A DNA stretch of 64,000 nt from a virus, in the IMG/VR virus record IMGVR_UViG_3300048088_000336, positions 15,463 to 79,462 of that record; one strand, written 5' to 3'. This document shows positions 1 through 39,025 of this stretch, piece by piece. The notes below the pieces were generated by a model. That model made no database searches. It saw nothing but the letters and a program-made list of their open reading frames with translations, and was not told where the DNA came from. Numbering within the stretch: position 1 is the stretch's first letter; each line of letters begins with the position of its first letter. Both the position numbers and the translations under genes were made by a program.

Positions 1-3000
1 CCAACGTCGACGCGTTGAAGAAAGTCATCCCCGCTGATCTGGGGGTCGATGAGGTCGACGGCCGGTTGGGTGCCGCGTGGATCCCCGCTGATGACGTCAA
101 AACGTTCATGATCGACCTGTTGCACGGTGGCGACAACCGGTACAACCCCGTGCAGGTGTCCACCTCCGGGGGTGGGATCTGGACCGTCGTCGGGGGCGAT
201 CACGGCAACGTCGCCACCGAACAGTGGGGCACGAAACGGAAGTCCGCTGGTGAACTGATCGCCGCCATGCTGGAGCAGAAACCGATCCGTGTAGTGGACA
301 CGATCGACGGGAAGTCCTACCCGAACCTGGAGGAAACCCTCGCGGCGCAGGCGAAGGCCGACGAGATCTCCGAACGTTTCTCCGAATGGTTGTTCGAGGA
401 CTCCGCGCGCACCAAACGTCTCCTGGCCGCCTACAACAATCAGTTCAACGCGGTCCGGTTGCGGTCCTACGATGGTGTGGATCGGGTGTTCCCGGGGATG
501 ACGTCGAGCGGGTGGAAACCCCGCGCGCATCAGGTGGCGGCCGTCAACCGGATCGTCTCGGAACCGTGTGCGCTGCTCGCCCACGTGGTGGGTGCGGGGA
601 AGACCGCTGAGATGGCGATGGGTGCCGCCGAACTCAAACGCCTGAGGATGGCGCGCAAACCCGCGATCGTGGTGCCGTCGCACATGCTGGAGCAGTTCAC
701 CCGCGAGTACCTCCAAATCTATCCGAGGGCGAAGATCCTGGCCGCTGGCACGGAGGACCTGGACGGGGATAAGCGCCGGGAGTTCGTGGCGCGCGCCGCT
801 ACGGGGCAGTGGGATTGCGTCATCCTCACCAAGGATGCGATGCAACTCATTCCCATGAGTCAAGACGCGCAGAAAGCCTACATTGATCGTGAAATGGCCA
901 CGATGCGCGCCCAGTTGGAGGCCGCGCAGGGCAGTGGTGGGGACGCCGCGCATCAAGCGACCGTGAAGAAAATGGAAAAGGCCGTCATCAAGGCTGAGGA
1001 GGCCCTGAAGGCGAAACTGGAGAAGACGAAAGACGCGGGGGTGTCTTTCGAGCAGACCGGCATCGACTACCTGTTCGTCGATGAGGCCCACCAGTACTCG
1101 AACCTGCGGACCGTGTCCAACATACAGGGCGCGGGGGCGTCCGGGTCGGGTATCGCCACCGACCTGCACATGAAGATCGAGCACCTGCGGGCCAACAATG
1201 AGTCGGGCCGGGTGGCGACGTTCGCTACCGGCACACCGATTCGTAACACCGTGACACAGGCATACATTATGCAACGGTTCATGCGCCCCGACCTGCTGAA
1301 AGAAGCGGGGGTGCATTCGTTCGACCAGTGGGCCGCCACGTTCGGGCAAACCGTTGACGAGATGGAACTCAAACCGGAGGGCACGGGGTTCCGGCAGACC
1401 ACCCGGTTCGCGAAGTTCCGCAATGTGCCTGAACTGCTGCGCCTGTTTCAGATTTTCGCGGACGTCAAGACCGCTGAGGACCTCAACCTGCCCACCCCGG
1501 ACCTGGCCGGTGGGTCGGTGGACAATGTGGTTGTCCCGAGCACCGATGAGCTGCGGGAGACCATGGCGGAGTTGGCGCACCGCGCCGACCAGTACCGGGC
1601 GGGGTCCCCGGAGAAGCGCACCAACGCGGCCGGTACCGGTGAAGTCGACGACATGATGCTGCTGATCAGCATGGATGGTCGCAAAGCCGCGATGCGCCAG
1701 TCGGACAAACTGGACATGGCGGCGGAGAAGATCGCGGACATCTGGGGAAAGAACAAGAACAAGCCCATCCCGAAAGACTTGGATGACCCCACCGCTGGGG
1801 ATGACCCCCCACCCGGTGGGATGCAAATCGTGTTCTGTGACATGTTCACCCCCAAGGGTGGCGCCAAGAGTGACGTCGAGCAGCGAACCGAGTACGACGA
1901 CGGGGACAACTTCGACGCCTACGCTGCCTTGCGGGCGAAACTGGCGGACCGGGGCATGGATCCGAAACGGATCCGGTTCATGCACGAGGCCAAGAATGAC
2001 CGTCAGAAGGCCGAACTGTTCGCCGCCGCACGCAATGGTGGCCTGGATGTTCTCGTCGGCTCCACGGAGAAGATGGGGGTCGGTACGAACGTCCAGAGAC
2101 GCGCGGTGGCCCTGCACCATTTGGATGCCCCGTGGCGCCCCTCGGATCTTGAGCAGCGTGACGGCCGGATCATGCGCCAAGGCAATGCCAACGACGAGGT
2201 CTCAATCCACCGGTATGTCACCGAGGGCTCATTCGACGCCTACATGTGGCAGACCCTGGAACGCAAAAAGAAGTTCATCGACCAGATCATGGGCGGCAGC
2301 CTCGACCAGCGGGAGATCGAGGACGTTGGTGAGACGGCCCTGTCCTACGCTGAGGTCAAGGCGCTGGCGACAGGCAACCCCCTGCTGTTGCAGAAGGCCA
2401 CCGTCGACACCGCGATCGGGAAACTGTCCCGCCTGGAGCGCACCCACAACCGCACCCAAACCAACCTCCGGCGTGACGTCGTCGCCTTCCGGGCCAACGC
2501 GGAAGCCTCCGACGCCTACGTCAAAAAAATGGACGCGGCCGTCAAAGCCCGCACTGACATCACGGGCGACAACTTCGCGATGACCGTGCACGGCACCACC
2601 ACCCGCGACCGGGGTGAGGCCGCGTCCATGCTCAAAGCCGCTGTCGAGGACGTCATCCGCAACGACTACGGGTACGGGAAGCGGGCCAAGCCCGTCGCGG
2701 AGTTCGGTGGACACAAACTGATGGCCACCGTCGAGGATCATTACGACCGCAATGGGGCCCGCCGCCGTGGCGTGACCTTGACCTGGGACGGGGTGCCCGG
2801 GGGTGCGAGTGGTGGTAACGCGACCGCCGCGTCGATCAGCTACCAGCAGCTCGCCAGTGGTGGCATCGGGCAGGGCACCCTGGCGACGCTAGCGCATTCC
2901 CTGCACTCCTTCGAGTCGCACCGCGACATCTCCGCTGATCACGCCACCCGTTTGCGGTCCGAAGCGGATGTGATGGAAGCCCGGGTGGGCACCGAGTTCC

Positions 3001-4319
3001 CGCACGCGGGCGCACTGAAAACCGCCCGGGATGAGTCCGCCCGGCTGAAGGCCACAATGGAGGCATCCGGGATCCGGGAGGACGCCGGGCCCGGTGAGTC
3101 GGACGCGGCGAAGAACTTGGCCACCGCGCGGACGAAAGCCGCTGGGCAGGCCGCCCGCATGGGCCGCTCCGGTGGAAACGCGGCCACCACGCTCAAGAGG
3201 TTCGGGAACTCCACCGCCACCCCCGGCGCGGTGGCCTCCCCCAACGGCGCGGTCGGCGCGTACATGCACAACGGGGACTTCAAAGTGTTCCTGACCGATG
3301 ACGGGGTCGATGTCCGGGACCTGGCCGGGATCTCCTCCGATGACCTCAAGGGTGTGGTCAAGGACCCGCAGGGGTTGGTGGATGACCTGGCGAAACTGGA
3401 CCTTCCCTTCGATGAGGGCGCGCGCTCCCTGTATCGGCGTTGGAACGGGGACTACTCCTACAGCCCACCGGACTACTCGAAGTCCTACGAGGAACGGGAA
3501 GCGATCGCTCAAGCCAAACGGGACAAGCTCAAAGCTGGGGAGACGGCCGACAAGAACGCGATCAAGGCTGTGTTCGCGCGGCACCTCACGGACGCACCTG
3601 TTGAACCGGAACTGACCGGGGTCGACGCCGCGAAACGGGCCGCTGCCCGCGCGGCGGAAAACGACCGCATCGGGGACCTGGCGAAGAAGCGACTGAAGCG
3701 GTTCGCGAAAGCCAGTAAACGCATCCCCCACTACGCGTCCCCCGACGGGAAGATCGGGGCCGTCACCGACACCGATGGCGGGCTGGAGTTCTTCGCCACC
3801 GGCAACGGCATGCTGCTCAACGCCCCCGGTTCGGTGGGGCCCGTCGATGACCCGCAGGCCGTGGTCGATGAGATCGCCGCACTCGGTGTGCCCCTGGGTG
3901 ATTCAGAAGTCCGGTATGAGCGGTGGGGGCGTGGGGACGGGCAGCAAAATGAGGACGTGACCGCGATCCGGGGCATCCTCACCCGGCATGCTGACCTCAT
4001 GGGTGAGAAGTCGGCGATCATCGGGGCGTGGGAGTTGCTGCGCGCGCAGCGCCTCGACATTGAAGTGAAGGCCCGCGCGGACCGGGCGGCTGGGGAGGTC
4101 ACCCCCACCCCGGACCCGGAACTGGAACCGTTCACGGTGCTCGTCGCCGATGACGTTCGCTACACGATGGACGCATCCGGGACCCTGCAACGTCTCATGC
4201 CGTGCCCGGCGTGCGGTCAGGAGATGATGGTGCCCGCGTTCGGGGAGTCCGAGACACCACCGTGCCCCTCGTGCGGTGCGGTCCCCACTGTGGACAAGCG
4301 CCGGGCACCGGTGGGTTGA
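1..4319 (+). CDS. DarB-like SNF2/SF2 helicase (methylase-helicase family), probably 5'-truncated by the window edge; C-terminal duplicated domain and Zn ribbon
   Basis: Motif I AHVVGAGKT, motif II LFVDEAH, ATGTPIRN, EKMGVGTNVQ and PWRPSDLEQRDGRIMRQGN match the DarB/N12-class methylase-helicase family. The frame is open from the window start. Confidence 0.85.
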   Translation, partial: NVDALKKVIPADLGVDEVDGRLGAAWIPADDVKTFMIDLLHGGDNRYNPVQVSTSGGGIWTVVGGDHGNVATEQWGTKRKSAGELIAAMLEQKPIRVVDTIDGKSYPNLEETLAAQAKADEISERFSEWLFEDSARTKRLLAAYNNQFNAVRLRSYDGVDRVFPGMTSSGWKPRAHQVAAVNRIVSEPCALLAHVVGAGKTAEMAMGAAELKRLRMARKPAIVVPSHMLEQFTREYLQIYPRAKILAAGTEDLDGDKRREFVARAATGQWDCVILTKDAMQLIPMSQDAQKAYIDREMATMRAQLEAAQGSGGDAAHQATVKKMEKAVIKAEEALKAKLEKTKDAGVSFEQTGIDYLFVDEAHQYSNLRTVSNIQGAGASGSGIATDLHMKIEHLRANNESGRVATFATGTPIRNTVTQAYIMQRFMRPDLLKEAGVHSFDQWAATFGQTVDEMELKPEGTGFRQTTRFAKFRNVPELLRLFQIFADVKTAEDLNLPTPDLAGGSVDNVVVPSTDELRETMAELAHRADQYRAGSPEKRTNAAGTGEVDDMMLLISMDGRKAAMRQSDKLDMAAEKIADIWGKNKNKPIPKDLDDPTAGDDPPPGGMQIVFCDMFTPKGGAKSDVEQRTEYDDGDNFDAYAALRAKLADRGMDPKRIRFMHEAKNDRQKAELFAAARNGGLDVLVGSTEKMGVGTNVQRRAVALHHLDAPWRPSDLEQRDGRIMRQGNANDEVSIHRYVTEGSFDAYMWQTLERKKKFIDQIMGGSLDQREIEDVGETALSYAEVKALATGNPLLLQKATVDTAIGKLSRLERTHNRTQTNLRRDVVAFRANAEASDAYVKKMDAAVKARTDITGDNFAMTVHGTTTRDRGEAASMLKAAVEDVIRNDYGYGKRAKPVAEFGGHKLMATVEDHYDRNGARRRGVTLTWDGVPGGASGGNATAASISYQQLASGGIGQGTLATLAHSLHSFESHRDISADHATRLRSEADVMEARVGTEFPHAGALKTARDESARLKATMEASGIREDAGPGESDAAKNLATARTKAAGQAARMGRSGGNAATTLKRFGNSTATPGAVASPNGAVGAYMHNGDFKVFLTDDGVDVRDLAGISSDDLKGVVKDPQGLVDDLAKLDLPFDEGARSLYRRWNGDYSYSPPDYSKSYEEREAIAQAKRDKLKAGETADKNAIKAVFARHLTDAPVEPELTGVDAAKRAAARAAENDRIGDLAKKRLKRFAKASKRIPHYASPDGKIGAVTDTDGGLEFFATGNGMLLNAPGSVGPVDDPQAVVDEIAALGVPLGDSEVRYERWGRGDGQQNEDVTAIRGILTRHADLMGEKSAIIGAWELLRAQRLDIEVKARADRAAGEVTPTPDPELEPFTVLVADDVRYTMDASGTLQRLMPCPACGQEMMVPAFGESETPPCPSCGAVPTVDKRRAPVG

Positions 4320-4359: not shown

Positions 4360-4667
4360 GGGCTGGGGTTACTCGCCCCAGCGGGGGTGATTTCACTGTA
4401 GCGGCGTGTCGGGCTCGCGGCCAGTCGTGAACGAAAGACGCCCCCAATGTGGATCGGGGGCGCTTCCGGCTGGACTCACTACTCCACCGACGGAGATAGT
4501 GGTTCCCACCGTACGCGGCGTGGCGCGCGCCCCGCCAGCCGAATCGGTGATCTACTCCGCTCCACGCGCCTGGTGCTGACCGGTGCGAGTCATTCCGGGC
4601 ACGCTGCCGGGGGCCTCGCGCTGCCCAGCTCGTGCTCACTCACACCGAGCACACAGGAGGGGCGGAA

Positions 4668-6023
4668 GTGCCCGACACACTGACCCACCACGACAAAGAT
4701 TTGATTGATCGTGGGCGGGCTGAGGTCAAGAGCCTCAACACCAAACTGGATGAGATCACCAAGTCTGGGTGGCTGGACGGCGACGGCAACATGCACGTCG
4801 AACCGGGTGCCCTCGCGGAGTTCAAGTCGACCCTGGCCGCCGCTGAGGAAGCGCACGGCATCGTCGCCGCCCTCGAACGCAAAGGCGCCCTCGATGCGTG
4901 GCTGGACGCCCCGGCGACGGATTCCCCGGCCGCGTTGGCCGCTGGGCAGGCCGGTGGCGGCAGTCAGCTCATGCGCCCAGCGGAGTACAAGTCTTTGGGG
5001 CAGCGGTTCATTGAGTCGACCGAGTTCAAGGGCCACCGTGACTCCGGGTTCATGGACTCCGCTTTCGTTGTCGAAGACCAGGAGATCACTTACGGGGCGC
5101 AGTTCAAGGACGTGCACTCCGGGTCGATCGGCACCGTCACCCACCCCGGTTTCGGCACGGTTCAGCGCGCACCGATGGTGTCGGCGCCGATGCTCACCTG
5201 GCGGGTGCGTGATCTTTTCCCGCAGATGAACACCAACTCGGTGATGATTGAGTTCATTGAGGAGTTGGGGTTCGTCGACGCGGGCGACAATGCCGCCGCG
5301 ATGGTGCCCGAACGTGAGGGCACACCACCTACGGACACGTTCGGTCTGAAGCCGAAGTCAACGATTCACTTCAACATCAAGACCACGCCGATTCGGACCC
5401 TGGCGCACTGGGTTCCCGCGTCCCGCAACGTGCTCGATGACGAACCGCAGTTGCGGGGAATCATCGACACGCGCCTGCTGTACGGCCTGCGCCTGGTCGA
5501 GGACCAGCAGTTGCTGCTGGGTGACGGCACTGGACAGAACCTGCTCGGCATTTTCAACACGCCGGGTATCCAATTGTTCCCCTCCGGCACCTACCACGCG
5601 CCCACCAACGAAACGTATGTCGACGCCATTCGCCGGGGTGCGACTCGCGTCATGCTGGCACAATACGACCCGACCGGCGTAGTTGTTCATCCTTACGATT
5701 GGGAAAGGATGGAGCTGACCAAGGACACCCAGGGCCGGTACCTGGTTGCCGGGTCGGTCACTTCCGGTGCCGAGAAGCGTTTGTGGCAGATGCCCGTGGT
5801 CGCCACCCCCGCGTGCCCGGAGGGCACGGCCCTGATTGGTGCGTTCGGTTTGGGCGCGCAAGTTTTCGACCGGATGCAATCCAATATCCGCACCGCTGAC
5901 CAGCACGCGGACTTCTTCATTCGTAACGCGATCGTGGTCCTGGCGGAGGAGCGGCTCGGTTTGGCCGTGTACCGGCCCGCGTCGATGGTGAAGGTCAACC
6001 TGGCCGCCGCGATCGCCGCCTGA
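4668..6023 (+). CDS. Major capsid protein, HK97 fold
   Basis: AGGAGG RBS before GTG 4668. Motifs RTLAHWVPASRNVLDD, EDQQLLLGDGTGQNLLGI, LWQMPVV and FIRNAIVVLAEERLGLAVYRPAS; N-terminal delta-domain-like coiled region. Confidence 0.95.
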   Translation: MPDTLTHHDKDLIDRGRAEVKSLNTKLDEITKSGWLDGDGNMHVEPGALAEFKSTLAAAEEAHGIVAALERKGALDAWLDAPATDSPAALAAGQAGGGSQLMRPAEYKSLGQRFIESTEFKGHRDSGFMDSAFVVEDQEITYGAQFKDVHSGSIGTVTHPGFGTVQRAPMVSAPMLTWRVRDLFPQMNTNSVMIEFIEELGFVDAGDNAAAMVPEREGTPPTDTFGLKPKSTIHFNIKTTPIRTLAHWVPASRNVLDDEPQLRGIIDTRLLYGLRLVEDQQLLLGDGTGQNLLGIFNTPGIQLFPSGTYHAPTNETYVDAIRRGATRVMLAQYDPTGVVVHPYDWERMELTKDTQGRYLVAGSVTSGAEKRLWQMPVVATPACPEGTALIGAFGLGAQVFDRMQSNIRTADQHADFFIRNAIVVLAEERLGLAVYRPASMVKVNLAAAIAA

Positions 6024-6792: not shown

Positions 6793-6980
6793 TCGGACAG
6801 CATCCCGACGGTGAGCAGGGCGTCGATGAGGCGACCGACCGCGCCGGGGTCGACGTAAACCTGCTCCCCTTCGGCGGCGAGGGCCCGCAGGTCGTCGCGG
6901 ACCTCGTTCCAGGTGCGGCCGTAGGTGCCGTCGAGGCTCATGGCGATTTCGGCGGCGGCGGCCTCGACACTGTTGCTCAC
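6789..6980 (-). CDS. Hypothetical protein
   Basis: Start overlaps the DUF2786 gene stop (4-nt overlap). Confidence 0.55.
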   Translation of the reverse strand: MSNSVEAAAAEIAMSLDGTYGRTWNEVRDDLRALAAEGEQVYVDPGAVGRLIDALLTVGMLSD

Positions 6981-7735
6981 CGGATCGCCGTCCGGGATGC
7001 GGTGACGCGGGTTTGTCCGAGGTCGGCGCGCCGCCCGGCCGCCTGACCGGAGTAGTAGGCGTCGGGGTTGATCTGGTTTCGGGACTTCACTTTGGGCAGG
7101 TCACCGAAGAGTTCGTTGTAGGCGGCGTCGACTTTGGTTTTGCGGTCGAGGAGAACGAGTTCGGTGGAGCGGGTACCGGGTTCCCCGCTCGTGGTGGTGG
7201 CCTGCTGGGCTTTGTCTTGGGCTGCGGCGCGGGCTTCGATGGCTTCCAGGCGGGCGCCGACGGCGTAGGCGAAGCCGTTGAACCAGGAGCGCCGGTAGAC
7301 GGTGACGCTGGAGGTGAGGTCGCCGTAGATGTCGAGGGGGGGACGCTGGTGTTTGATCTGCCCGGCCGCCTGGAGGAGCAGGGACGTGTAGGTCACTTCG
7401 ATGCGTTCGAGGTCGCTTTTGTGTCCGACGACGACGCAGTAGGCGACGGCGGAGGATCCGGGGGGTCCGTAGCGCACGGTGCGGCTACGGCAGGCCAGTG
7501 CGATCTGGACGAGGAGGCGGGTTTTCTCCGCCGTGTAGGTGCCCGTCATGTCGATGCGCATGGAGATGATCTCGTCGTTGATTTTTCCGGCGTCGGCGAG
7601 CTGGGCTTGCTCGATGCCGTGCTGGGCCATCAGGGCGTGCGCGCGTTCGGTGTAGGTCTCGGCTTCGGCTGGGAAGTCGGTGGACTCGGCTTTGGCGAGC
7701 AGCGCCCGGACTCGGTTGAGCAGTTTCTGATCCAT
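6977..7735 (-). CDS. DUF2786 domain protein
   Basis: N-terminal RVRALLAKAESTDFPAEAETYTERAHALMAQHG; C-terminal YYSGQAAGRRADLG. Confidence 0.85.
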   Translation of the reverse strand: MDQKLLNRVRALLAKAESTDFPAEAETYTERAHALMAQHGIEQAQLADAGKINDEIISMRIDMTGTYTAEKTRLLVQIALACRSRTVRYGPPGSSAVAYCVVVGHKSDLERIEVTYTSLLLQAAGQIKHQRPPLDIYGDLTSSVTVYRRSWFNGFAYAVGARLEAIEARAAAQDKAQQATTTSGEPGTRSTELVLLDRKTKVDAAYNELFGDLPKVKSRNQINPDAYYSGQAAGRRADLGQTRVTASRTAIR

Positions 7736-7761: not shown

Positions 7762-7786
7762 CGGAACACCACGGAGCCTACCACAC
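7762..7786 (-). promoter_or_regulatory. Class I (putative early) promoter, copy 1
   Basis: GTGTGG-TAGGCT-N7-GTTCCG upstream of the DUF2786 gene RBS. Confidence 0.7.
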
Positions 7787-8538
7787 TAGGAGGCGCGTAC
7801 CATGCCGGGTCGGGCCGTCACCCCGTTGTCCGCCAACACATCCCCGGTGTCCGACAGCATCGGACCGACCGTGGCCGGTTCCTCGATGCTCACCGCCGCA
7901 GGCGCCACAGCACCCCCCGTGGTGGCCGGACGCAGGCGTAAGTGCTGGCCCACTGCGATGAGGTTCGGGTCGGCGACCGAGTCCCGATTCGCGTCGTACA
8001 GGGCCTGCCACCCGCCTGAGGTGTGCGCGGCATCAGCGATGCTCGCCAGGGTGTCCCCGTCGGTCACGCTGTAGTCGGTCGCTGACGCGGGGATCTCCGG
8101 CGCGGCGTGACGGGGTGGTGCGCTGGCGGCCAGTGGGATCGCTGGCACCGACGGGGCAGCATGACGCGGCGCCTTCACCGTCGTCGCGCTACCGCCGCGT
8201 TTGCCGCACACCGGCCACGCCCCGATGCCCTGCCCGGCGAGGACCTTTCGGGCGACGGTGATCTGCTGCTCCCGCGACGCGTTCTCCGGCATGCCCGCAC
8301 CGCCGTAGCCGTGCCAGGTTTGCAGAGTGAACTGGAGCCCCCCGTGGAAGCCGTTACCGGTGTTGATCGCCCAGTTGCCGCCCGATTCGCATGCCGCGAT
8401 GGCGTCCCAGTCGGGTTCGGCGGACGCGGGAGGGGCCAGTGCTGTGCTCACGGCCACAGCGGATCCCAGGATGTAACCGCCGCCGAGGACAACGCGGGGC
8501 AGGATGGGGCGTCTTGCTTCACGGTGTTTGCCGGACAT
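7786..8538 (-). CDS. rpf: Resuscitation-promoting factor (Rpf) transglycosylase with LysM domain, secreted
   Basis: WDAIAACESGGNWAINTGNGFHGGLQF...EQQITVARKVLAGQGIGAWPVC; signal peptide ending ASA; LysM YSVTDGDTLASIA...DPNLIAVGQHL. Confidence 0.93.
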   Translation of the reverse strand: MSGKHREARRPILPRVVLGGGYILGSAVAVSTALAPPASAEPDWDAIAACESGGNWAINTGNGFHGGLQFTLQTWHGYGGAGMPENASREQQITVARKVLAGQGIGAWPVCGKRGGSATTVKAPRHAAPSVPAIPLAASAPPRHAAPEIPASATDYSVTDGDTLASIADAAHTSGGWQALYDANRDSVADPNLIAVGQHLRLRPATTGGAVAPAAVSIEEPATVGPMLSDTGDVLADNGVTARPGMVRAS

Positions 8539-8758
8539 GGCGGGCAGTCCATGGCACAGACCGGCCGCAGCGAAACCCGTTACCGGCCCGTAATCGACGA
8601 GCGGGCATCCACACGCGGTGAGTGACACGCCATCGGCGACACGCGGGCGAACCTGAGAGGGCCCTAAGAGCGTTACTGACGGTGCGCGCGCTGTAGTGTC
8701 CGCGTGCGCTCACCGGGGCGTCGAGTTCCGGCCCCGGCCATCTACCGAGGGGATTTCG

Positions 8759-9484
8759 ATGTACCGCAAGTCTCTGGCTGTAGCCGCCGCCGTCGGCGCG
8801 CTGGCCCTCCCGCTGGCCCTGGCCATTCCGGCCGCCGCCGACCCCACCACATGCGCCAACGCCGTCAACGGCACCAAGTCGTGCGACTACGACGGGCTGC
8901 GCGTCAACGTCCACGTCGGCAACCTGGGTACCGTCGGGGCCCGACTGGGCAACGGTGGCACCTGCGATTCGGACACGCTGTTGCTCGTGCAGGTCCGCGC
9001 TGATCAGCACGGTTCCCACCAGCGGGTGATCCGGGCGGAGTCCGCCTACGGCACCGCGCAGGCAGACCTCAAGGCCAAGCAGGACGCCTATAACGCTGCC
9101 GTGGCCGGACACAACGCGAACCCGCCCACCGCCACCCAGGCTGACGTTGACCGGGCGAAGAATGCGCGCGACGTTGCGCAGACCAACGCCGACGCCGCCC
9201 GTCGGGAGTTGCAGGAGGCGCGCGACGCCGACAGTGTCCTGCTCGCCCGGATCTCCCTGCTGGGTAGCCGGATCCACGGCACCGAGTGCACCACCCCCAC
9301 ACCGGTGCCACCCACCACGGACGTCCCCGTGCCCACAGACACCCCGGCACCCCCGGTGATCGTGGGTGGGCCGACCATCGTCAACAACCCCCCGGCCGAG
9401 CAGTCCCAGGTGGGTCAAGCCCCGCAGGGGTTCGTTAGTGCTGGTGGTGGCGCTGACGCGGCAGCGGTCGAGTCTTTCAGTTGA
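8759..9484 (+). CDS. Secreted protein, putative class F sortase substrate
   Basis: GAGGGG RBS; Sec signal peptide (..IPAAA); Cys residues, coiled coil and Pro/Thr linker; C-terminal QVGQAPQGFVSAGGG; stop overlaps the sortase start. Confidence 0.75.
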   Translation: MYRKSLAVAAAVGALALPLALAIPAAADPTTCANAVNGTKSCDYDGLRVNVHVGNLGTVGARLGNGGTCDSDTLLLVQVRADQHGSHQRVIRAESAYGTAQADLKAKQDAYNAAVAGHNANPPTATQADVDRAKNARDVAQTNADAARRELQEARDADSVLLARISLLGSRIHGTECTTPTPVPPTTDVPVPTDTPAPPVIVGGPTIVNNPPAEQSQVGQAPQGFVSAGGGADAAAVESFS

Positions 9485-10179
9485 GTCGTCTCGCGGCCGT
9501 CATGGTCGCGTTGTGTGCGCTGGTCGCCCTCGTCGCCGGTTGTAGCCCCGGTGGCGGGGGCGTTCCCGCGCATGGTCCGATCGTGGTGCGCAACCAGGCA
9601 CCACCACCACCGATCCAACCGGCGAGCCTCGACATTCCGCAGATCAGTGTGCACTCCACTCTGATTCCGTTGGGTGTTGTCGCGGATGGCCCCGATAAGG
9701 GCGCGGTGGCGGAACCGGATGTCAACCATCCACAGCAGGCGGGCTACTACTGTGTGACCCCGCAACCCGCACCGGTGCCGCCTGTGTGCACGTGGGGTGT
9801 CGTCCCGGGCGCGCTGGGTCCGGCTGTGATCATCGGGCATGTGGATGGGTCGATCCGCAACGGGGCGCATCAACAGGGTGTGTTCTTTCGCCTCCACGAG
9901 CTGCGCCCCGGTGACCAAGTCGACGTCACCCGATTGGATGGCAGTGTCGTAGCGTTCGAGGTGTACCGCAGTGTGCAGGTGGATAAGCGCACCGGGTTCC
10001 CCACTCAGGACGTCTACGGCAACACCACCGCCCCAGAGTTGCGTTTGATCACGTGCACGGGGAAGTTTGTGGGCGGTCCGTTGGGATATAAGGACAACCT
10101 GATCGTTTTCGCCCGGCTGGCGGGGGTCACTGCGGCACCGGTGGCCGCTCCGAACTCAGTACCGGTTCCCCGGGGTTGA
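9481..10179 (+). CDS. srtF: Class F sortase (predicted lipoprotein)
   Basis: PGALGPAVIIGHVD (His), VFFRLHELRPGD, ELRLITCTG (Cys), YKDNLIVFA; lipobox-like VAGC. Confidence 0.92.
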   Translation: MSRLAAVMVALCALVALVAGCSPGGGGVPAHGPIVVRNQAPPPPIQPASLDIPQISVHSTLIPLGVVADGPDKGAVAEPDVNHPQQAGYYCVTPQPAPVPPVCTWGVVPGALGPAVIIGHVDGSIRNGAHQQGVFFRLHELRPGDQVDVTRLDGSVVAFEVYRSVQVDKRTGFPTQDVYGNTTAPELRLITCTGKFVGGPLGYKDNLIVFARLAGVTAAPVAAPNSVPVPRG

Positions 10180-10374: not shown

Positions 10375-10683
10375 ATGGACTACGTCAAAACCATGTTCGG
10401 TCAGAACGCCCAGCACGTTCCCGCCTGGCTCTACATCCAAGACGCGGGCCACGGCGTGGTGACCTTCGCCGGATCATCCATGTCATCACCGGCCGACCAC
10501 CCGCTGCGCTACGCATCCCCGCGCACCCACCAGTTCATCGTCGGCGAGATCATCGTCCGGCCACACCTCATCGTCGCCACCGACGCACTCCGAGGTAAAG
10601 GACTAGCCAATCTGATCACCATCGAACACGACATTGACCGCATGCTCACCGACGGGGAGATCCTGCTCGGCCGCCGCCCATGA
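10375..10683 (+). CDS. Hypothetical protein
   Basis: Strong RBS and GC3 bias; coupled to the next gene. Confidence 0.7.
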   Translation: MDYVKTMFGQNAQHVPAWLYIQDAGHGVVTFAGSSMSSPADHPLRYASPRTHQFIVGEIIVRPHLIVATDALRGKGLANLITIEHDIDRMLTDGEILLGRRP

Positions 10684-11690
10684 TGTCGCCAGGCCACAGC
10701 CTGTCCGGCCCACCCGTGGCCTACTCCCTGTGCCTTCTCTACGAACTGTCCACAGGTGTGGAGCTGGCCTGGGGAATCCCGCACATCGCCGCGATCATCG
10801 TCGCCGGATGGTGCAACTGGCCCGACTGCGACACCCTGAAGTCCACCGTCTCCACCTCCCTGGGGATCATCACCCGCAGCCTGCACGAACTCGTCGTCAT
10901 GCTCTGCGCCGTCATCTACTACGCCACCCGCTCCGAAAAAGACGACCCCAAAAAGCCCGTCATTCACCGGGGCGCCACCCACACGTGGCCCGGCGCTGTC
11001 TTCATGGGCCTGCTGGTCGCCGTGATCTGCCTCGCCTGGCCGATGTGGGGAACCATCGGTGTTCTCGGAATCTCCCTGCACTGGGCGATGCGCGGCCTCT
11101 ACATCCCCAACTCCCCCGACAAGCCACTCGGTAAGACCGCCCTGGACGGGCACAGGCTGTTCGCCCGAATCGGCATCGTGGTCTACCACCGCATGGGTGT
11201 GGCCCTGAAACGCAATGCCGTGGAGATCCTGCGCATGCTGCCCATGCCCGGCAAGTACCTGCGGGCGTTCGGGCGCACCGGCACTTTCGCGATCTGCCTC
11301 GGTGTCGCGTTCATTCTGGTCCGGGCGACCCCCGCGCTGGACACCCCGTGGGCGGGCCTGCTCGGTGCCGCCGCCGCCGTCGGTGTCCTCACGCACATGG
11401 TCGGCGACAGCGTGACGGAGTGCGGCATCTGTTGGTTCTTCCCCTTCAGGCACCCCCGCACCGGGAAACGGTGGGAGTTCGTGCACCTGCCGAAGTGGTT
11501 GGCTTTCAAAACCGGCCGGGCGTTCGAGTACGGCATCGTCTACCCCCTGCTGATGCTCGCCGCGATGGTCGCCATGCCCGGTGGTTTCGCCCTGGTCTTG
11601 GAGGTTTACGCCGCGTGGCGCACCAACCATGTGCAGGCGACGGCGCTACGGTTCGCGCCATGGCTAACGGAACCTCAACTGACTCTCTAG
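10680..11690 (+). CDS. YdjM-like membrane metal-dependent hydrolase
   Basis: GHSLSG, PDCD, HRGATHT and HMVGDSVTECG motifs; multiple TM segments. Confidence 0.85.
   Translation: MMSPGHSLSGPPVAYSLCLLYELSTGVELAWGIPHIAAIIVAGWCNWPDCDTLKSTVSTSLGIITRSLHELVVMLCAVIYYATRSEKDDPKKPVIHRGATHTWPGAVFMGLLVAVICLAWPMWGTIGVLGISLHWAMRGLYIPNSPDKPLGKTALDGHRLFARIGIVVYHRMGVALKRNAVEILRMLPMPGKYLRAFGRTGTFAICLGVAFILVRATPALDTPWAGLLGAAAAVGVLTHMVGDSVTECGICWFFPFRHPRTGKRWEFVHLPKWLAFKTGRAFEYGIVYPLLMLAAMVAMPGGFALVLEVYAAWRTNHVQATALRFAPWLTEPQLTL
11613..11659 (+). promoter_or_regulatory. Class II (putative late) promoter, leaderless
   Basis: GCGTGGC-N27-TACGGT-N7-ATG 11660. Confidence 0.45.
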
Positions 11691-14770: not shown

Positions 14771-16234
14771 ATGGCTGTAGGTGTCACCGTTGCCCGCACC
14801 GCTGCGGCCGGATCGCTGTACCCCATTCCCGTTCCGAGCGCCTCCTATTTCGTGGTGGGCCTGGCCAACCGTGGCCCGTCGGTCGACGTCGTGCGCGTGA
14901 CGTCGATGGCGCAGTTCGAGGCCGCGTTCGGTACCCGCCCCAGCTTCGGCAACCTCTACGACGACGTCTCCACGTTCTTCTCCGAAGGCGGCGGTGAGGC
15001 TTACGTCGCCCGCGTCGTCGGACCGGCCGCCACCCAAGGGTCCCTGGCGACCCCACTGGCGGACCGCGCCGGTACCCCGGTGAGCACCATGCAGGTCACC
15101 GCCAAAGGGCCGGGCGCGTGGTCCTCGGATGTCACTGTCTCGGTCATCGCCGGGACGGTCCCCAACACGTTCACCCTCTCGATCTCCTACCTGGGTGTCG
15201 AGGTGGAACGGTTCGCAAACCTGACCTCCCCGCAGGACGCGGTCACCAAGACGGCCGGATCCGCGTGGGTGACTTTGACGGATCTCGCGTCGGTGACGAC
15301 CGCGCCGAACAACAATCCCGCCGTGGTGGGCCCGGTGGCCCTGTCGGCCGGTGCCGATGACCGGGGGTCGGTGGACGCCGCCGCCATGGTCACCGCCTTG
15401 AACCGGTTCGGTGGCCAGTTCGGTGACGGGTGCGTCGCCATCCCCGGTGGGGGGGACGCCACGCACGCGGGACTGCTGACGCACGCCACCGCGAACAACC
15501 GGCTGGCGATCTGTGTGTCCGCGCGGGGCGCGTCAGCGACCCAGTTGGCGACGTTGGCGGCCGGATACAACTCCGAGTACGGGGGGCTGTTCGGTCCATG
15601 GGTGCAAACCCGGGACGCGTTCGGTGGGACCCTGGTGATCCCACCGGACGGTTACATCGCCGCCGTGCGGGCTCGCGCGCACCGCGATGTGGGCCCATGG
15701 CAGGCCCCAGCGGGGGAACGCGCCCGATCCTCAGTTGTCGTGGGTGTGGATCAGATTTTCGATTCCGCCACCGCCAACGCCCTGGAGGACGCGAAAGTCT
15801 CCCCGATCCTGCCCACCACGGGTGGGGTTCGGCTCTACGGGTGGCGGTCCCTGTCGGCGGACACCGCGAACTGGCGGCTGCTCACCGGTGTGGACACGAT
15901 CAACCGGATCGTGATCGCCGCCAGTCAGCAGCTTCAGCTCCTCCTGTTCGAGACGATCGACTCCAAGGGGCACCTGCTGTCCCGCGTGGAGGGCGCCCTG
16001 ATCGGCATTGTGCAACCCATGGCCGACGCAGGCGGGCTGTACGCGTGGGTGGACGCGGACCCCAACGGGGGCAATCCCGTGCAGCAGGACCCCGGTTACG
16101 CGGTCACCACGGACCCGTCCCGGGAGGTGGCGTCAGCCAACATGGTTGTCGCCAACGTCGCGGTGCGCGTGTCCCCGACCGGTGCGCTGATCGCATTGAC
16201 CGTGACCAAGGTCGGCGTCACCCGGCGATTCTGA
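14771..16234 (+). CDS. Contractile tail sheath protein
   Basis: FVVGLANRGP, FFSEGGGEAYVARV, AKGPGAWS, IPPDGYIAAVRAR, PWQAPAG and LYGWRSL are sheath motifs. Confidence 0.93.
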   Translation: MAVGVTVARTAAAGSLYPIPVPSASYFVVGLANRGPSVDVVRVTSMAQFEAAFGTRPSFGNLYDDVSTFFSEGGGEAYVARVVGPAATQGSLATPLADRAGTPVSTMQVTAKGPGAWSSDVTVSVIAGTVPNTFTLSISYLGVEVERFANLTSPQDAVTKTAGSAWVTLTDLASVTTAPNNNPAVVGPVALSAGADDRGSVDAAAMVTALNRFGGQFGDGCVAIPGGGDATHAGLLTHATANNRLAICVSARGASATQLATLAAGYNSEYGGLFGPWVQTRDAFGGTLVIPPDGYIAAVRARAHRDVGPWQAPAGERARSSVVVGVDQIFDSATANALEDAKVSPILPTTGGVRLYGWRSLSADTANWRLLTGVDTINRIVIAASQQLQLLLFETIDSKGHLLSRVEGALIGIVQPMADAGGLYAWVDADPNGGNPVQQDPGYAVTTDPSREVASANMVVANVAVRVSPTGALIALTVTKVGVTRRF

Positions 16235-30295: not shown

Positions 30296-30900
30296 ACATT
30301 TTCTACGTCATCAACTCACTGGTGTGGTCACTGGTGGGCGGGCTGGCCGGATTCAAATACGGGCAGCTCTACCGAGACAATGTTGAGATTAAGAGGCGAC
30401 TGAGCATGGTCGAAAGCGAACTCCCCGACACCCCCGACGCCCCGGCGCCCGTCGCCCCGGTGAGGCCGCCCCGCTGGAAAGTTCTGCTGCACGAGCCCAG
30501 TTCCCGCCAGCTCGTCGGTGTCGTCGTCATCATCATGGCCGTGCTCACCGTGATCAGTGGCGCCTTCTACTCGCACCAACGCAACGCTGAAAGTAACTGC
30601 CAAACCGCGTACTTCAACGCCTACACCGAGGCCCTGCGCTCCCGCGATGACCTGGCCACCCGCTCCCGCGCCGGACTGGAGGCATACATCGCCGCCAGCA
30701 ACGACCTGTGGCTCGGTTTCCTGAAGAACGCCCCCGTCGCCGGGGGCCAGTCCACTGACGCGCAGCGCGCCGCGAGCATCGCCATCCTCAACGACTACCT
30801 GGCGAAGTCCCGTGCCTCCATCGCCGACCTGCAAGAAGTGGACAGGGCCAAGCAGGTGTTCCCGATCCCCGCCAACACCTGCCCCGGTGCCCCCTCGTGA
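30292..30900 (+). CDS. Membrane protein, lysis region
   Basis: Two TM segments plus a helical extracytoplasmic domain bounded by two Cys. Confidence 0.7.
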   Translation: MNIFYVINSLVWSLVGGLAGFKYGQLYRDNVEIKRRLSMVESELPDTPDAPAPVAPVRPPRWKVLLHEPSSRQLVGVVVIIMAVLTVISGAFYSHQRNAESNCQTAYFNAYTEALRSRDDLATRSRAGLEAYIAASNDLWLGFLKNAPVAGGQSTDAQRAASIAILNDYLAKSRASIADLQEVDRAKQVFPIPANTCPGAPS

Positions 30901-31505
30901 CGCGGGCCTTGCGCCCTGCCCCGCGTCGCAGCCCGTGGCGGTGGCTCACCCAGGACCGCCCCGCCCAAATCGCCGCCCTGGTCATGCTGGTCGCGGGAGC
31001 GGCGGTCACGATCGTGGACATGGGGGATCGGGACGCTCAAACCAGCGCGGCCAACGATCGGGTTACTCAGGTCTCCGCCGAACGTGACGTCTCCGTGGCC
31101 CGGTCACTGTCCCTGGCGGAGCAGGTCAAAGCCGCCTGCGCTGGTAGTGGCGCGATCGAACTCGGTGACGCGTGTCATTCAGCGGAGGTTGTTGTCGCCC
31201 AACCGATCCCCGGCCCGCGCGGCATCCCCGGCGCTCCCGGTGTGAGTGGCCCGCAGGGGCCACCCGGCGCGACAGGACCGACCGGGCCGACGGGGCCACC
31301 CGGTAAGGACGGCACCCCCGGAACCGATGGACGCAACGGCGCCCCCCCAGCGGGGTGGGTCATCGCCAACGCCGACGGATCAACCACCACCTGCGCTCGT
31401 GCCCGCGCCTTCGATCCGACCAACCCGCGCTACGCGTGCACCGCGCGCGGCCTGCCCGTCGCCCCCCGGGAGCAACCGGGCCCCCGAGTGGAACCGACAC
31501 GATAG
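30897..31505 (+). CDS. Membrane-anchored collagen-like protein
   Basis: TM helix, Cys pair, about 15 Gly-X-Y triplets ([10 protein letters not shown]...), second Cys pair. Confidence 0.8.
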
Positions 31506-35503: not shown

Positions 35504-38500
35504 GTGGCTACCCGCCTGTACTTCAATAACACCGCAGCCCCTTACACCCCGACCACCATTCGGGGCACGTGGAGCGCCACTGGTAGTGCCGTCGCGAAAC
35601 TCCTCGGCGCAGCGCACGATGCTGGTGCGCCGACCACCATCGGGATCGCCGAAACAAACACATCAGCCACTTTCAACGTGCTGTGGGGACGGTGGATCTC
35701 CGCGCCCGCAGCGATCAGCGGGAACCTCTCCGGTGTTGTTTCCTGGGCGGTAGGCGTCAAAGAGTCGAGCGCCAGCGCACTCGACGTCCTACGGGTACAC
35801 ATCTATGTCACCACGGGCAGCAGTGACACCCCGCGCGGCACCCTGCTCACCAACTACACCGACACCGTCAGGTTCACCACCACCGCTGCCGGTATTTCAT
35901 CGCTCGACGTAGCGATCAGCACCGTCGCGGTACAGGCCGGGGACCGCGTTGTCGTCGAAATCGGCTACGAAGCACAGAACACTTCAGCGACGTCATTCAC
36001 CGGCACCATGAATTACGGCGGCAACCAGTTCTTCCGGGACCTGGTTGCCGCCCAGTCCTCAGGAAGTCACGGCACCGACCCGGCCACCCGCTACGGATGG
36101 GTCCAATTCTCCGACCCGAACAGCGTCCTGGTCGCCGCCCCCACGGGCGCTGCGAACCGTTGCCCCAACCCGGCCGCAAAAACTTACCAGGACTTCTGGT
36201 CAACCGCCGCCAACACCACGGTCACACAGCCCGCCGAGACCGGATTCAGTCGCACCACCGGATTGCACGTCGTCATTGGTACGGCAGGCGACCCGTCTAT
36301 TCAACCCGCTGTGGTTCCGGCCGCCGCAGGGGAAACTTGGTCAACCTATTTCGAGGCGAAAGGGTCGGTCACCGCAGGGAACACCACAACATGCTGGCTG
36401 AACTTCCTTGACGCCCGAGGCAACTTCCTCACCCCCAACCCTTCCCAAAACGTCACCCTATCCACCACCGCGCAAGCAATCACGTTCTCCAACTACACAG
36501 CCCCCACCAACACAGCCTATGTTGGCGTATCCCTTGAGGGCACCGCAGCGATTGGTGACACCTTCGACGTCACTTGCGTCCGCTACGACATCGCCGCCTC
36601 GATCGCCGCCTACGCCGACGGTGACACCACCGGCTGGTCGTGGGATAACGCCCTCACCGACGGCGACTCCCCCTCGCGGGCCCTGCCCGCCACCAATGCC
36701 AACGCCGGGAACGCCGCCGCCACGGCAACCGCCCAGACTCCCAGTCCGGCAGTCGCCCCCGTTCCCACCGCGAGCACCGCGAACGCTGCTGCCCAGAACC
36801 CTGGCGGCGCGGCTTCCACTGGCGCGGGCGTGGGCGCCGGGAGCGCGGCAGCGAAATCCCCGAACCCCAGCGTCGCCCCCACGGGCGGGGCCGGGGCCGC
36901 CAGCGCGGCGGCGCAAGCACCCAGCGTGTCCGTGTTCGCCAACGCCGGATGCGCTGGCGCGACAGCCTCCGCCCAGAGCGCAACCGGCACAGTCGCCCCC
37001 ACTGCCGGGGCCGGGGCCGCCAACGCGGTCGCGCAAGCCCTCAGTAGCACTGGCGCCGCCACCCCCACTGCTGCGGCAGCGACTGGCACCGCACCCACCC
37101 CGGCCGCGAACATCGCCGCGCCCGCTGGCGCTGCGACGGCCACCGCTGTCGGACAGTCCGCCACCACCCAGATCTCCCCCACTCCCACGGCGGCCGCCGC
37201 GACTGGTACGGCGCAGCAACCGGGTGGAACCGGCAGCTCCACCTCCACCGCCGCGACCGCCAGCGCAGCCGCGCAAACACCCACCCCTGCGGTAACGGCG
37301 CCCGCAGGAGCCGCCACCAGCACCGGTACCGCCCCGACTCCCGCCGTCGCCGTGGCCCCCACCGCCACCGTCAGCACAGCCACCGGCGTGGCGCAGGGCG
37401 CGAACTCCACTGGCGCGACCACCGCCCAGGCCGCTACCGCCAGTGCGGCGGGACAGTCCTCAGCCGGAAGTGTCGCCGCGCCAGCGGGGGCCGCCACAGC
37501 GACCGCCGCCGCGCTGAACTCGGTCGGGGTTGTCGCCGTCAGCGCGGTGGCCGGGGTAGCTGGTGCGGGCGCGGCGGCGGGCAATGCCAGTACCACAGCC
37601 GCTGCTGGCGCCGGGTCGGCCAGTGCGACCGCGAGCGCACCAACGCCGCGTGCGAATGTCGCCCCCACCGCCAGCGCGGCGACCGCCAGCGGAGCGGGCC
37701 TCAACGCGGTCGGGGTTGTCGCGGTGTCCGGGTTCGCTGGTGCCGCTGGGGCGACCGCTGCCGCGCAACCGCCCGGTGGGACGGTCACCGCGACGACGAG
37801 TGCGGCGGCAGGTACCGCGACGGCGCCCGCACCCACACCGTCGATCGCCCCCACCGCCAGTACAGCCACCGGCAGCGGGGCAGGTTTGAACGCGGCCGGG
37901 GTCGTCGCGGTAGCCGCGCCCGCCGGTGCCGCTGGGGCGACCGCGTCCGCACTGAGCCCAGCACCGTCCATAGCGTCCACTGCGGGGCCCGCGTCGGCGA
38001 CGGGTGCCGCTCTGACGGCCGCCGCGTCCAGCTCACCCACGGCCACTGTGGCGGCAGCGACCGGGCGCGCCGAGGATCCGACCGCCACGATCACTGCTCA
38101 CCCCGGTGCGGGTACGGCCACCGCCACCGCGTCGAATCCGGGCCCACTGGTCGCCCCGGTAGCCGGGACCGCATCTGCTACGGGTGAGGCGTTCGACCCA
38201 CTCACCTCGACCGCGACGGTGACGTTCGCGGTCGCCGGATGCGCGGGCGCCACCGCCAGTGCCGCCAACCCTGGTACGACCGTGACCAGTCTCGCCGGGA
38301 CCGCTGCGGGCACCGGGACGGCGCCAACACCAGGTGGCGCGGTCAGTACACCGGCCGGGGCGGGAGCAGCCGTCGGTGCCGCCCTGGCGCCTACTGGAAG
38401 GGTCGGGGCGCAAGCCGGGGCAGCCACAGTCAACGCGACAGGGAACACGCCCAGCGGAGACAGTGGAGCGCACTCCGGGGTTGCCAGTGCGACCGGCGCC

Positions 38501-39025
38501 GCACCCACCCCGACCCCACGCGTGCAGGCCGGGGCGAATACTTCTGCCGCGACCGGGACCGCCGAACAACCGGCACCCGCCGTGGCCCCCCGTGCGGGTA
38601 CGGCAACAGCCAGCGCGACGGCGCGCGATGGGGCACCAACCTCACTGACGAACGCTCTCGCCGGGGTGGCGGGGTCGACCGCTACCGCGCAGCCGCCCGT
38701 CTCGGCCGTACGGGCACACGCGGATCTCGCGGCGGCAATCGCCGCCGCACTAGCCGGTGCAGGCAGTGTGGGAGCTAATGCGGCGACCGCGTCCGCCCTG
38801 GCGGCGGCATTGGATGCGGTCGCGAAACTCAGTGTCGCCTGGCCGCCCCGCGCGGGCACGATCACGATCACTGGGGTGGCCCGTGGGGTGGTGACGGTGG
38901 CGGCGTTGGCCGCCGCTACCGTGACGGTGGAGACCGTCGGGGGCGGAAACATCGACATGATCGAAGTGGCCAGCGGTGACGAGCACGTCACCAGAGTGGC
39001 CAGCGGCGCGGGGACGCTGAACTGA
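35504..39025 (+). CDS. Large Ala/Thr/Gly-rich fibre-like protein with N-terminal beta-sandwich/CBM-like domains
   Basis: GGGAGG RBS; about 390-aa globular N-terminus followed by about 750 aa of degenerate, roughly 19-aa AGAATATA repeats. Confidence 0.75.
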   Translation: MATRLYFNNTAAPYTPTTIRGTWSATGSAVAKLLGAAHDAGAPTTIGIAETNTSATFNVLWGRWISAPAAISGNLSGVVSWAVGVKESSASALDVLRVHIYVTTGSSDTPRGTLLTNYTDTVRFTTTAAGISSLDVAISTVAVQAGDRVVVEIGYEAQNTSATSFTGTMNYGGNQFFRDLVAAQSSGSHGTDPATRYGWVQFSDPNSVLVAAPTGAANRCPNPAAKTYQDFWSTAANTTVTQPAETGFSRTTGLHVVIGTAGDPSIQPAVVPAAAGETWSTYFEAKGSVTAGNTTTCWLNFLDARGNFLTPNPSQNVTLSTTAQAITFSNYTAPTNTAYVGVSLEGTAAIGDTFDVTCVRYDIAASIAAYADGDTTGWSWDNALTDGDSPSRALPATNANAGNAAATATAQTPSPAVAPVPTASTANAAAQNPGGAASTGAGVGAGSAAAKSPNPSVAPTGGAGAASAAAQAPSVSVFANAGCAGATASAQSATGTVAPTAGAGAANAVAQALSSTGAATPTAAAATGTAPTPAANIAAPAGAATATAVGQSATTQISPTPTAAAATGTAQQPGGTGSSTSTAATASAAAQTPTPAVTAPAGAATSTGTAPTPAVAVAPTATVSTATGVAQGANSTGATTAQAATASAAGQSSAGSVAAPAGAATATAAALNSVGVVAVSAVAGVAGAGAAAGNASTTAAAGAGSASATASAPTPRANVAPTASAATASGAGLNAVGVVAVSGFAGAAGATAAAQPPGGTVTATTSAAAGTATAPAPTPSIAPTASTATGSGAGLNAAGVVAVAAPAGAAGATASALSPAPSIASTAGPASATGAALTAAASSSPTATVAAATGRAEDPTATITAHPGAGTATATASNPGPLVAPVAGTASATGEAFDPLTSTATVTFAVAGCAGATASAANPGTTVTSLAGTAAGTGTAPTPGGAVSTPAGAGAAVGAALAPTGRVGAQAGAATVNATGNTPSGDSGAHSGVASATGAAPTPTPRVQAGANTSAATGTAEQPAPAVAPRAGTATASATARDGAPTSLTNALAGVAGSTATAQPPVSAVRAHADLAAAIAAALAGAGSVGANAATASALAAALDAVAKLSVAWPPRAGTITITGVARGVVTVAALAAATVTVETVGGGNIDMIEVASGDEHVTRVASGAGTLN

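Follow-up and report, generated by a model that had tools for sequence, protein, structure and literature searches.

A phage-borne class-F-type sortase and its predicted anchor-free substrate

A sortase gene carried by a phage raises two questions: which protein does the enzyme act on, and where is that protein placed? We addressed them for a 64,000-nucleotide stretch (positions 15,463 to 79,462, hereafter the window) of the IMG/VR virus record IMGVR_UViG_3300048088_000336, a linear metagenomic contig of 79.5 kb with an estimated completeness of 66%. Positions 8,759 to 10,179 of the window hold a gene for a secreted protein, here called X, followed by a gene for a sortase. A sequence-only reading had proposed that the two genes form a transpeptidation system that attaches or polymerises X on the host surface, possibly by an anchor-independent mechanism. 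Judged by sequence comparison, X is very probably the dedicated substrate of the adjoining sortase, because its tail outscores every other position of the window on a matrix of tails found beside cellular class F sortases, the pair is conserved, and no other part of X is conserved as well as the tail. The whole mechanism, including attachment of X to the host wall, appears rather probable on the same kind of evidence, and any specific role, such as the exclusion of other phages, is doubtful. Dedicated pairing of a sortase with its substrate is already known; what is new here is the combination of a phage-borne, class F and anchor-less system.

The sortase and the tail of protein X

All of the sortase elements listed in the sequence-only reading are present: the His of GHVD, the Cys of LITC, the Asn of YKDN, the lipobox-like VAGC and a Cys-flanked loop. 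The enzyme matches the Pfam family Sortase (PF04203, MEROPS C60) with 63.3 bits against a cut-off of 26.6. Its best family is the NCBIfam class_F_sortase model (NF033748) at 141.3 bits, which is below the curated cut-off of 166; the next class, GN, reaches 19 bits. The proposed class F identity therefore stands as the best family by hidden Markov model (HMM), but not at the level of the curated threshold. The nearest named relatives (37-49% identity) are class F sortases of Amycolatopsis, Saccharopolyspora, Kutzneria and Actinomycetospora, which are of the Pseudonocardiaceae type. Among 30 aligned relatives, His120 and Cys192 are invariant and Asn206 is nearly invariant. Arg188, four residues ahead of the catalytic Cys192, is invariant as well.

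The AlphaFold model of the sortase, with a predicted local distance difference test score (pLDDT) of 85.5, is an eight-stranded sortase beta-barrel. Foldseek matched it with a probability of 1.00 to sortases of classes A, C, D and E, at 13-20% identity. The best matches in the PDB belong to classes E, A and C, and the PDB holds no solved class F structure to match the model against. The loop between Cys91 and Cys103 occurs in the phage lineage and in the closest metagenomic relatives, and it is absent from the class F sortases of Amycolatopsis and Streptomyces. We label the enzyme class-F-type because its score is under the curated cut-off and it has this extra Cys-flanked loop. Neither X nor the sortase, nor a second viral sortase, has a match among 50,697 cultured-phage records.

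Both the sequence and the model bear out the earlier description of X as a secreted protein with a signal peptide, Cys residues, a coiled coil and a Pro/Thr stalk. Four cysteines are conserved (C32, C42, C69 and C177). The helices of the modelled hairpin comprise residues 69-118 and 127-173 (pLDDT 86-99). The conserved Cys69 and Cys177 sit at the base of the hairpin, and the length of its tip differs between homologues. Pro/Thr-rich segments like the stalk of X cross the wall in anchored surface proteins, and the order of signal peptide, coiled coil, Pro/Thr stalk and sorting motif is the build of a wall-anchored fibril. The C-terminus of X is QVGQAPQGFVSAGGGADAAAVESFS, in which the motif QVGQAPQGFVSAGGG is followed by 10 residues. 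As the sequence-only reading had claimed, neither a transmembrane (TM) helix nor a basic tail follows the motif: only 12 non-hydrophobic residues lie past Gly229, and not a single Arg or Lys occurs beyond the motif.

To place this tail among known sorting signals, 80 cellular class F sortase loci (Amycolatopsis, Streptomyces, Micromonospora and others) were collected, and the gene immediately upstream of each sortase was read. Nearly all of these upstream genes end with an extended motif, Q-V-x3-P-x-G-[GA]-[VPA]-x-[T/A]-G-[GDF]-G, which occurs in two forms. In one form, a TM helix and an RRR tail follow, and this form is curated by NCBIfam as the GVDTG sorting domain (NF058571). In the other form, only 2-13 residues separate the motif from the stop codon, and this codon and the start of the sortase gene often overlap. 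The X tail QVGQAPQGFVSAGGG can be aligned with the cellular QVAKVPSGAPQTGGG without a shift, Ala taking the place of Thr. The extended motif common to X and the cellular class F partners is Q-V-x3-P-x-G-x3-[T/A]-G-G. The PxGGVxTGGG ends that the sequence-only reading had mentioned are real, being found as TPKAGGVETGGGATARS in Amycolatopsis and as PSGGVATGGGPA in phages.

An ungapped log-odds position matrix was trained on 42 tails beside cellular class F sortases, with no viral sequence included. The X tail scored 18.4 bits and ranked first among the 77,456 six-frame positions of the window, where the runner-up reached 10.0 bits. Apart from Ala in place of Thr at P1, the tail agrees with the motif type of the GVDTG sorting domain, P-x-G-[GA]-[VPA]-x-T-G-G. 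X is thus the sole candidate substrate in the window, and it is encoded directly before the enzyme.

The X family is small, with 34 clusters among 1.84 billion proteins in an exhaustive profile search. All of its members that have a Q-V...TG-type tail are anchor-less. Pattern scans found no relatives of X in 185,579 species genomes or in JGI metagenome contigs. The ESM Atlas gave weak leads for X, namely clusters named putative LPXTG-anchor proteins (0.75) and a resemblance of the helical hairpin to HlyD adaptors.

Two side observations concern the relatives of X. Seven distant metagenomic homologues (P0141, P0146, P0149, P0154, P0155, P0157 and P0158) terminate exactly in LPVTG or LPVTH, with nothing beyond these residues. 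They keep the build of X, with a signal peptide, coiled coil, Cys residues and a Pro-rich segment. By sequence, these ends again put a sortase motif at the position of the X tail. In addition, Excalibur-type calcium-binding modules (DxDxDGxACE, PF05901) are recurrent in sortase partners. They are inserted N-terminally in two X homologues (P0006 and P0008), and they directly precede the motif in a family with viral and cellular members (loci L048, L072, L073, L089, L095, L109, L115 and L116).

Conservation of the pair in phages and bacteria

Seven IMG/VR contigs share the same backbone (capsid 81-90% and sheath 72-86% identical), and in all of them the X gene precedes the sortase gene at an unchanged position. 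Conserved pairing in homologous loci, on which the sequence-only reading had staked its proposal, was therefore found. The overlap of the sortase TTG start with the X stop, which had been noticed earlier, is confirmed in the window (Table 1). In the lineage, stop and start overlap as NTGA in five of the seven contigs and abut directly as TAA-GTG in the other two. The cassette diverges much faster than the virion genes, with identities of 47-64% for the sortase and 33-45% for X. Within mature X, conservation is highest in the tail; 13-15 of 16 residues are identical among close homologues, versus 34-42% in the hairpin. Two of the contigs, 121.5 and 120.2 kb long, have direct terminal repeats and represent complete genomes.

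Related sortases are encoded on 39 IMG/VR contigs, some of which are complete genomes of other phage types. The survey of phages for anchorless partners that had been suggested yielded about 20 further viral contigs of other types, in which a class F sortase stands behind an anchor-less partner. When upstream partners were sorted by regular expression, 26 of the 31 classed viral loci had an anchor-less partner and five an anchored one. Of the cellular loci, 63 could be classed, with 20 anchor-less and 43 anchored partners. Anchor-less signals are thus common beside cellular class F sortases, and they are not special to this phage.

Many viral partners terminate in P-x-G-G-V-x-T-G-G-G-P-A. One protein family contains both kinds of partner, with anchored members in Amycolatopsis and anchor-less members in viruses, and an invariant P-x-G-G-V-x-T-G-G-G is common to both. 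The viral members stop exactly where the cellular ones run on into the TM helix. Several of the viral partners in this family copy the build of X, with a signal peptide, Cys, coiled coil, Cys, Pro/Thr stalk and motif. A tree of the sortases was calculated with FastTree; it has many weak forks and supports a coarse grouping only. In this tree, the window enzyme groups with its lineage mates, and the partner type switches several times.

A possible association between the partner type and the lipobox was considered and not retained. Sortases with a lipobox accompany anchor-less partners in 41 of 45 loci and anchored partners in 24 of 48 (L003-L121; Fisher p = 1e-5, uncorrected for kinship). This association failed the relatedness control, which left one independent pair on supported branches. 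Shared ancestry may explain it, and it is a lead only.

Among the cellular loci, the partners in L003 (positions 3000-3965, Labedaea) and L004 (positions 2907-3959, a metagenome-assembled genome of Pseudonocardiaceae) belong to the 'choice-of-anchor P' family (NF040603) and end in VVPAGAPQTGDGSLA without an anchor. Relatives of the class F sortases were also observed on 35 actinobacterial plasmid records, such as NZ_CP108387.1 and NZ_CP021994.1, and 15 of these plasmids are predicted to be mobilizable or conjugative.

Possible mechanism and alternative explanations

A course of events can be proposed from these comparisons. X and the sortase would be produced from one message by stop/start coupling, as the conserved overlap suggests. 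X would be exported by Sec with removal of its signal peptide, and the sortase would be exported and lipid-anchored through Cys21 at the outer face of the membrane. Cys192 would then attack the Ala228-Gly229 bond of the tail, between QVGQAPQGFVSA and GGG, to release a 13-residue peptide and form a thioacyl enzyme. This scissile bond, between nucleotides 9442 and 9443, is predicted by analogy. The intermediate would be resolved by an amine, most likely the cross-link amine of lipid II. X would thereby be built into the host wall; its Pro/Thr stalk would cross the wall, and the hairpin, with flanking Cys residues and a variable tip, would be exposed. The membrane anchor, which normally holds a substrate near its enzyme, would be dispensable, as it is for AbpA and SrtB. 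A possible role of the attached protein is to block further phage adsorption to the infected cell or to debris. The T5 lipoprotein Llp is a phage envelope protein that blocks adsorption by non-covalent binding to FhuA. Both proteins may mask receptors at the envelope, whereas the attachment of X would be covalent and made by a phage transpeptidase; this parallel is speculative.

The AbpA-SrtB pair of oral streptococci provides a precedent for an anchor-free signal. The LPKTS-AVK tail of AbpA suffices for SrtB-dependent wall anchoring, and part of AbpA is released; wall anchoring and cleavage inside the motif have been shown experimentally (PMC4974636). As in the phage pair, a dedicated sortase gene adjoins that of a single substrate, the signal is a short motif with a few more residues and without a hydrophobic domain or charged tail, and the substrate contains an extended helical coiled coil. 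The X tail is of the AbpA-SrtB type in that it is a short anchor-less C-terminal motif beside its own sortase gene. However, SrtB is a chromosomal class B sortase of Bacillota with the motif LPKTS-AVK, and no sequence relationship is expected.

The cellular class F cassettes, which consist of an NF033748 sortase and an upstream NF058571 protein, are related to the phage pair by sequence. Their enzymes belong to the same family as the phage sortase and have the same pattern of His, Cys and Asn for Arg, and their genes stand in the same order, substrate before sortase, often with overlapping stop and start. The substrates share the extended motif with X. Unlike these cassettes, the phage pair lies on an apparently virulent phage, its sortase is below the class F cut-off and has the extra loop, and X has Ala at P1 and lacks the TM helix and basic tail of the NF058571 proteins. 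The only biochemically studied 'class F' sortase, according to the papers that cite it, is SrtF of Propionibacterium (Cutibacterium) acnes (Di Girolamo 2019, cited in PMC8225981 and PMC13251363). As described there, it shares with the phage enzyme the class F label and the nature of an actinobacterial transpeptidase. By the same description, it is a housekeeping enzyme for LPXTG substrates with full anchors, whereas the phage enzyme would have a private anchor-less substrate with P-x-G-x3-[T/A]-G-G. A full-text literature search found no paper that mentions the motif in connection with sortases, none devoted to sortases encoded by phages and none on anchor-less cellular class F partners, and such partners are without a curated model.

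Several points weigh against X as a wall-attached substrate of this enzyme. The P1 residue of X is Ala and not Thr; Ala at this position also occurs in five cellular loci (L006, L016, L029, L058 and L059). The curated GVDTG model (NF058571) did not match the last 44 residues of X even at E values up to 10. This model (GVDTG_CTERM) sees no anchor-less tail, and one anchor-less Amycolatopsis tail matches it only at positions 1-14 of 44. A HMMER profile of 17-residue cellular tails did not rank X; short profiles are ill-suited to HMMER, and the ungapped matrix was used for this reason. On the side of the enzyme, the score is under the curated class F cut-off, and Asn206 stands where the canonical catalytic Arg would be. 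Actinobacterial class F sortases have Asn in place of the catalytic Arg as a rule (PMC6998099). To our knowledge, neither a substrate nor a cleavage site or acceptor has been assigned to any class F sortase of this clade, and in Actinoplanes the loss of all four class F genes was without phenotype (PMC13251363). By analogy with AbpA, which is partly released, much of the anchor-less X may simply be released.

This last point leads to the possibility that the sortase only trims X, removing the 13-residue C-terminal peptide by hydrolysis, so that mature X would be soluble and not bound to the wall. Sortases hydrolyse their substrates when a nucleophile is unavailable, and X has no membrane anchor for its retention. 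AbpA, whose tail is similarly short, is readily released into the supernatant (PMC4974636). However, the Pro/Thr stalk right before the motif is typical of wall-spanning segments, the cellular homologous proteins bear a full anchor, and a dedicated transpeptidase would be costly for the removal of a tail. Trimming alone is therefore considered unlikely. The sortase might instead join X not to peptidoglycan but to itself or to another protein, in a pilus or ladder polymer or on a host surface protein. Polymerisation was part of the earlier proposal, and SrtB does polymerise AbpA into a ladder (PMC4974636). On the other hand, the 14-member alignment of the X family contains no invariant or nearly invariant Lys of a pilin motif, which disfavours polymerisation of the pilin type. 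In addition, mature X is predicted to begin with Asp-Pro and not Gly, a second substrate-like gene is absent, and the matrix gives no other site in the window. Protein ligation thus appears quite improbable.

The two genes could also be neighbours without being partners; the sortase would then act on host proteins of the GVDTG type, and the X tail would have another purpose. Hosts of the Pseudonocardiaceae type encode many such anchored proteins, and the action of the enzyme on X is a deduction from sequence. This explanation does not fit well with the stop/start arrangement kept in seven lineage members, the strong conservation of the tail, its top rank with a matrix derived from cellular neighbours and the occurrence of the same pairing in unrelated phages, and we regard it as highly improbable. 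Finally, the cassette could be host DNA from a chimeric assembly or a prophage flank, as the record is a linear contig of incomplete length and neither protein matches the cultured-phage records. The pair, however, sits between capsid/decoration genes and neck genes, and the same arrangement is found in the two complete genomes with direct terminal repeats. Moreover, X has no relatives in the species genomes scanned. A host origin is close to refuted.

The reading of X as a substrate grafted to the wall has some wider implications. It is a tentative possibility that virulent actinophages use a phage-borne class F sortase and an anchor-free signal to link one of their proteins covalently to the peptidoglycan of the infected cell, and that the exposed, fast-evolving hairpin alters what can bind there. 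If this is true, the grafted hairpin could exclude superinfecting phages or protect progeny on the infected hypha or debris. Class F sortases would then have an assigned function for the first time, and phages would have a new route to envelope remodelling; virulent phages may alter the host wall chemically while they infect it. In a whole branch of sortase systems, substrates may be able to do without the part of the classical sorting signal that retains them in the membrane. The physiological role and the structure of class F sortases are stated as undetermined in reviews (PMC11231552). These enzymes are widespread in Actinomycetota. A single enzyme, a single private substrate and a clearly delimited tail make the phage cassette the simplest system in which the motif, cleavage site and acceptor of class F could be studied. 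A transpeptidase specific for P-x-G-x3-[T/A]-G-G would also be orthogonal to the LPXTG tools for protein ligation.

Features of the cassette and its phage

The features of the cassette and its neighbours are listed in Table 1.

Table 1. Positions of cassette features and neighbouring genes in the window
Feature	Position	Strand	Basis or remark
DUF2786 gene	6977-7735	minus	in envelope-related block
Rpf-type transglycosylase, secreted, with LysM domain	7786-8628	minus	divergent from X
Shine-Dalgarno-like GAGGGG	8747-8752	plus	6 nucleotides before the X ATG start
Gene X, 241-residue secreted precursor, predicted private sortase substrate	8759-9484	plus	open reading frame
X Sec signal peptide, residues 1-27, putative site between AAA and D, without lipobox	8759-8839	plus	sequence; conserved in alignment
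X antiparallel helical hairpin, residues 69-173	8963-9277	plus	model, pLDDT 86-99
X Pro/Thr-rich stalk, disordered, residues 178-215	9290-9403	plus	sequence and model
X sorting motif QVGQAPQGFVSAGGG, Q217-G231	9407-9451	plus	top match of matrix; best-conserved X segment
X predicted leaving peptide GGGADAAAVESFS, 13 residues, not hydrophobic, no Arg/Lys	9443-9481	plus	sequence
Peptide spanning the predicted X cleavage site, QAPQGFVSAGGGAD			
Class-F-type sortase, 232 residues, TTG start	9481-10179	plus	HMMs, alignment and model
TTGA overlap, sortase TTG sharing two bases with X stop TGA	9481-9484	plus	sequence
Sortase lipoprotein signal peptide, lipobox L-V-A-G-C, Cys21 at 9541-9543	9481-9543	plus	GC conserved in most relatives
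Sortase Cys91-Cys103 Pro-rich loop insert	9751-9789	plus	alignment
Catalytic His120 (GHVDG)	9838-9840	plus	invariant column
R-L-I-T-C, Arg188 and catalytic Cys192	10042-10056	plus	both invariant
Asn206 (YKDN), start of strand beta8, canonical catalytic Arg position	10096-10098	plus	alignment and model
102-residue open reading frame	10375-10683	plus	strong GAGGAGG site
YdjM-like membrane hydrolase	10680-11690	plus	start overlaps stop of the 102-residue frame as ATGA

The entire window is phage DNA. It contains genes for an HK97-type capsid, sheath, tape measure, baseplate and terminase, and also for a DarB-like giant protein, a TIG decoration protein, neck proteins, helicases and a primase-polymerase. 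The cassette belongs to a block of envelope-related genes placed between the capsid/decoration genes and the neck genes. A divergent spacer of 130 nucleotides separates X from the Rpf-type gene. Rpf-like genes also adjoin the sortase cassette in L002, L087 (downstream, same strand), L095 and L111. Besides the Rpf-type enzyme, no further peptidoglycan hydrolase was found among the scanned open reading frames of the window. The YdjM-like hydrolase is present in every lineage member, with 43-76% identity. A simple consensus scan around the cassette found neither a sigma-70-like promoter nor a terminator, such a consensus being uninformative for actinobacteria.

The phage is an uncultured soil actinobacterial myovirus of about 120 kb with a probably virulent life style. 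A tyrosine integrase and a serine recombinase were sought in the record and in the two complete relatives, and neither was found; the lineage therefore looks virulent. Any role of the cassette would accordingly be played during lytic infection and not in lysogeny, and lysogenic conversion, which was considered as an explanation, was rejected on the same grounds.

Some other genes of the window are also of note. Just upstream of the capsid gene, an open reading frame of 1,434 residues (15-4319, plus strand), which is open at the 5' end of the window, matches, at 755 bits, an antirestriction protein of the DarB-like kind that has methyltransferase and helicase parts. The capsid protein (4632-6023, plus strand) has about 190-240 N-terminal residues before its HK97 domain (Pfam match at residues 240-456), and a fused scaffold or delta domain might account for this extra segment. 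By capsid, Brevibacterium phage Cantare (50%) and Gordonia phage GMA6 (48%) come closest among cultured phages. A protein of 202 residues (30897-31505, plus strand) with collagen triple-helix repeats probably belongs to a tail fibre. An open reading frame of 1,173 residues (35504-39025, plus strand), located where the GC content of the window is highest (72%), has no match in PHROG or Pfam; as it follows the baseplate and fibre genes, it may encode a tail fibre or receptor-binding protein.

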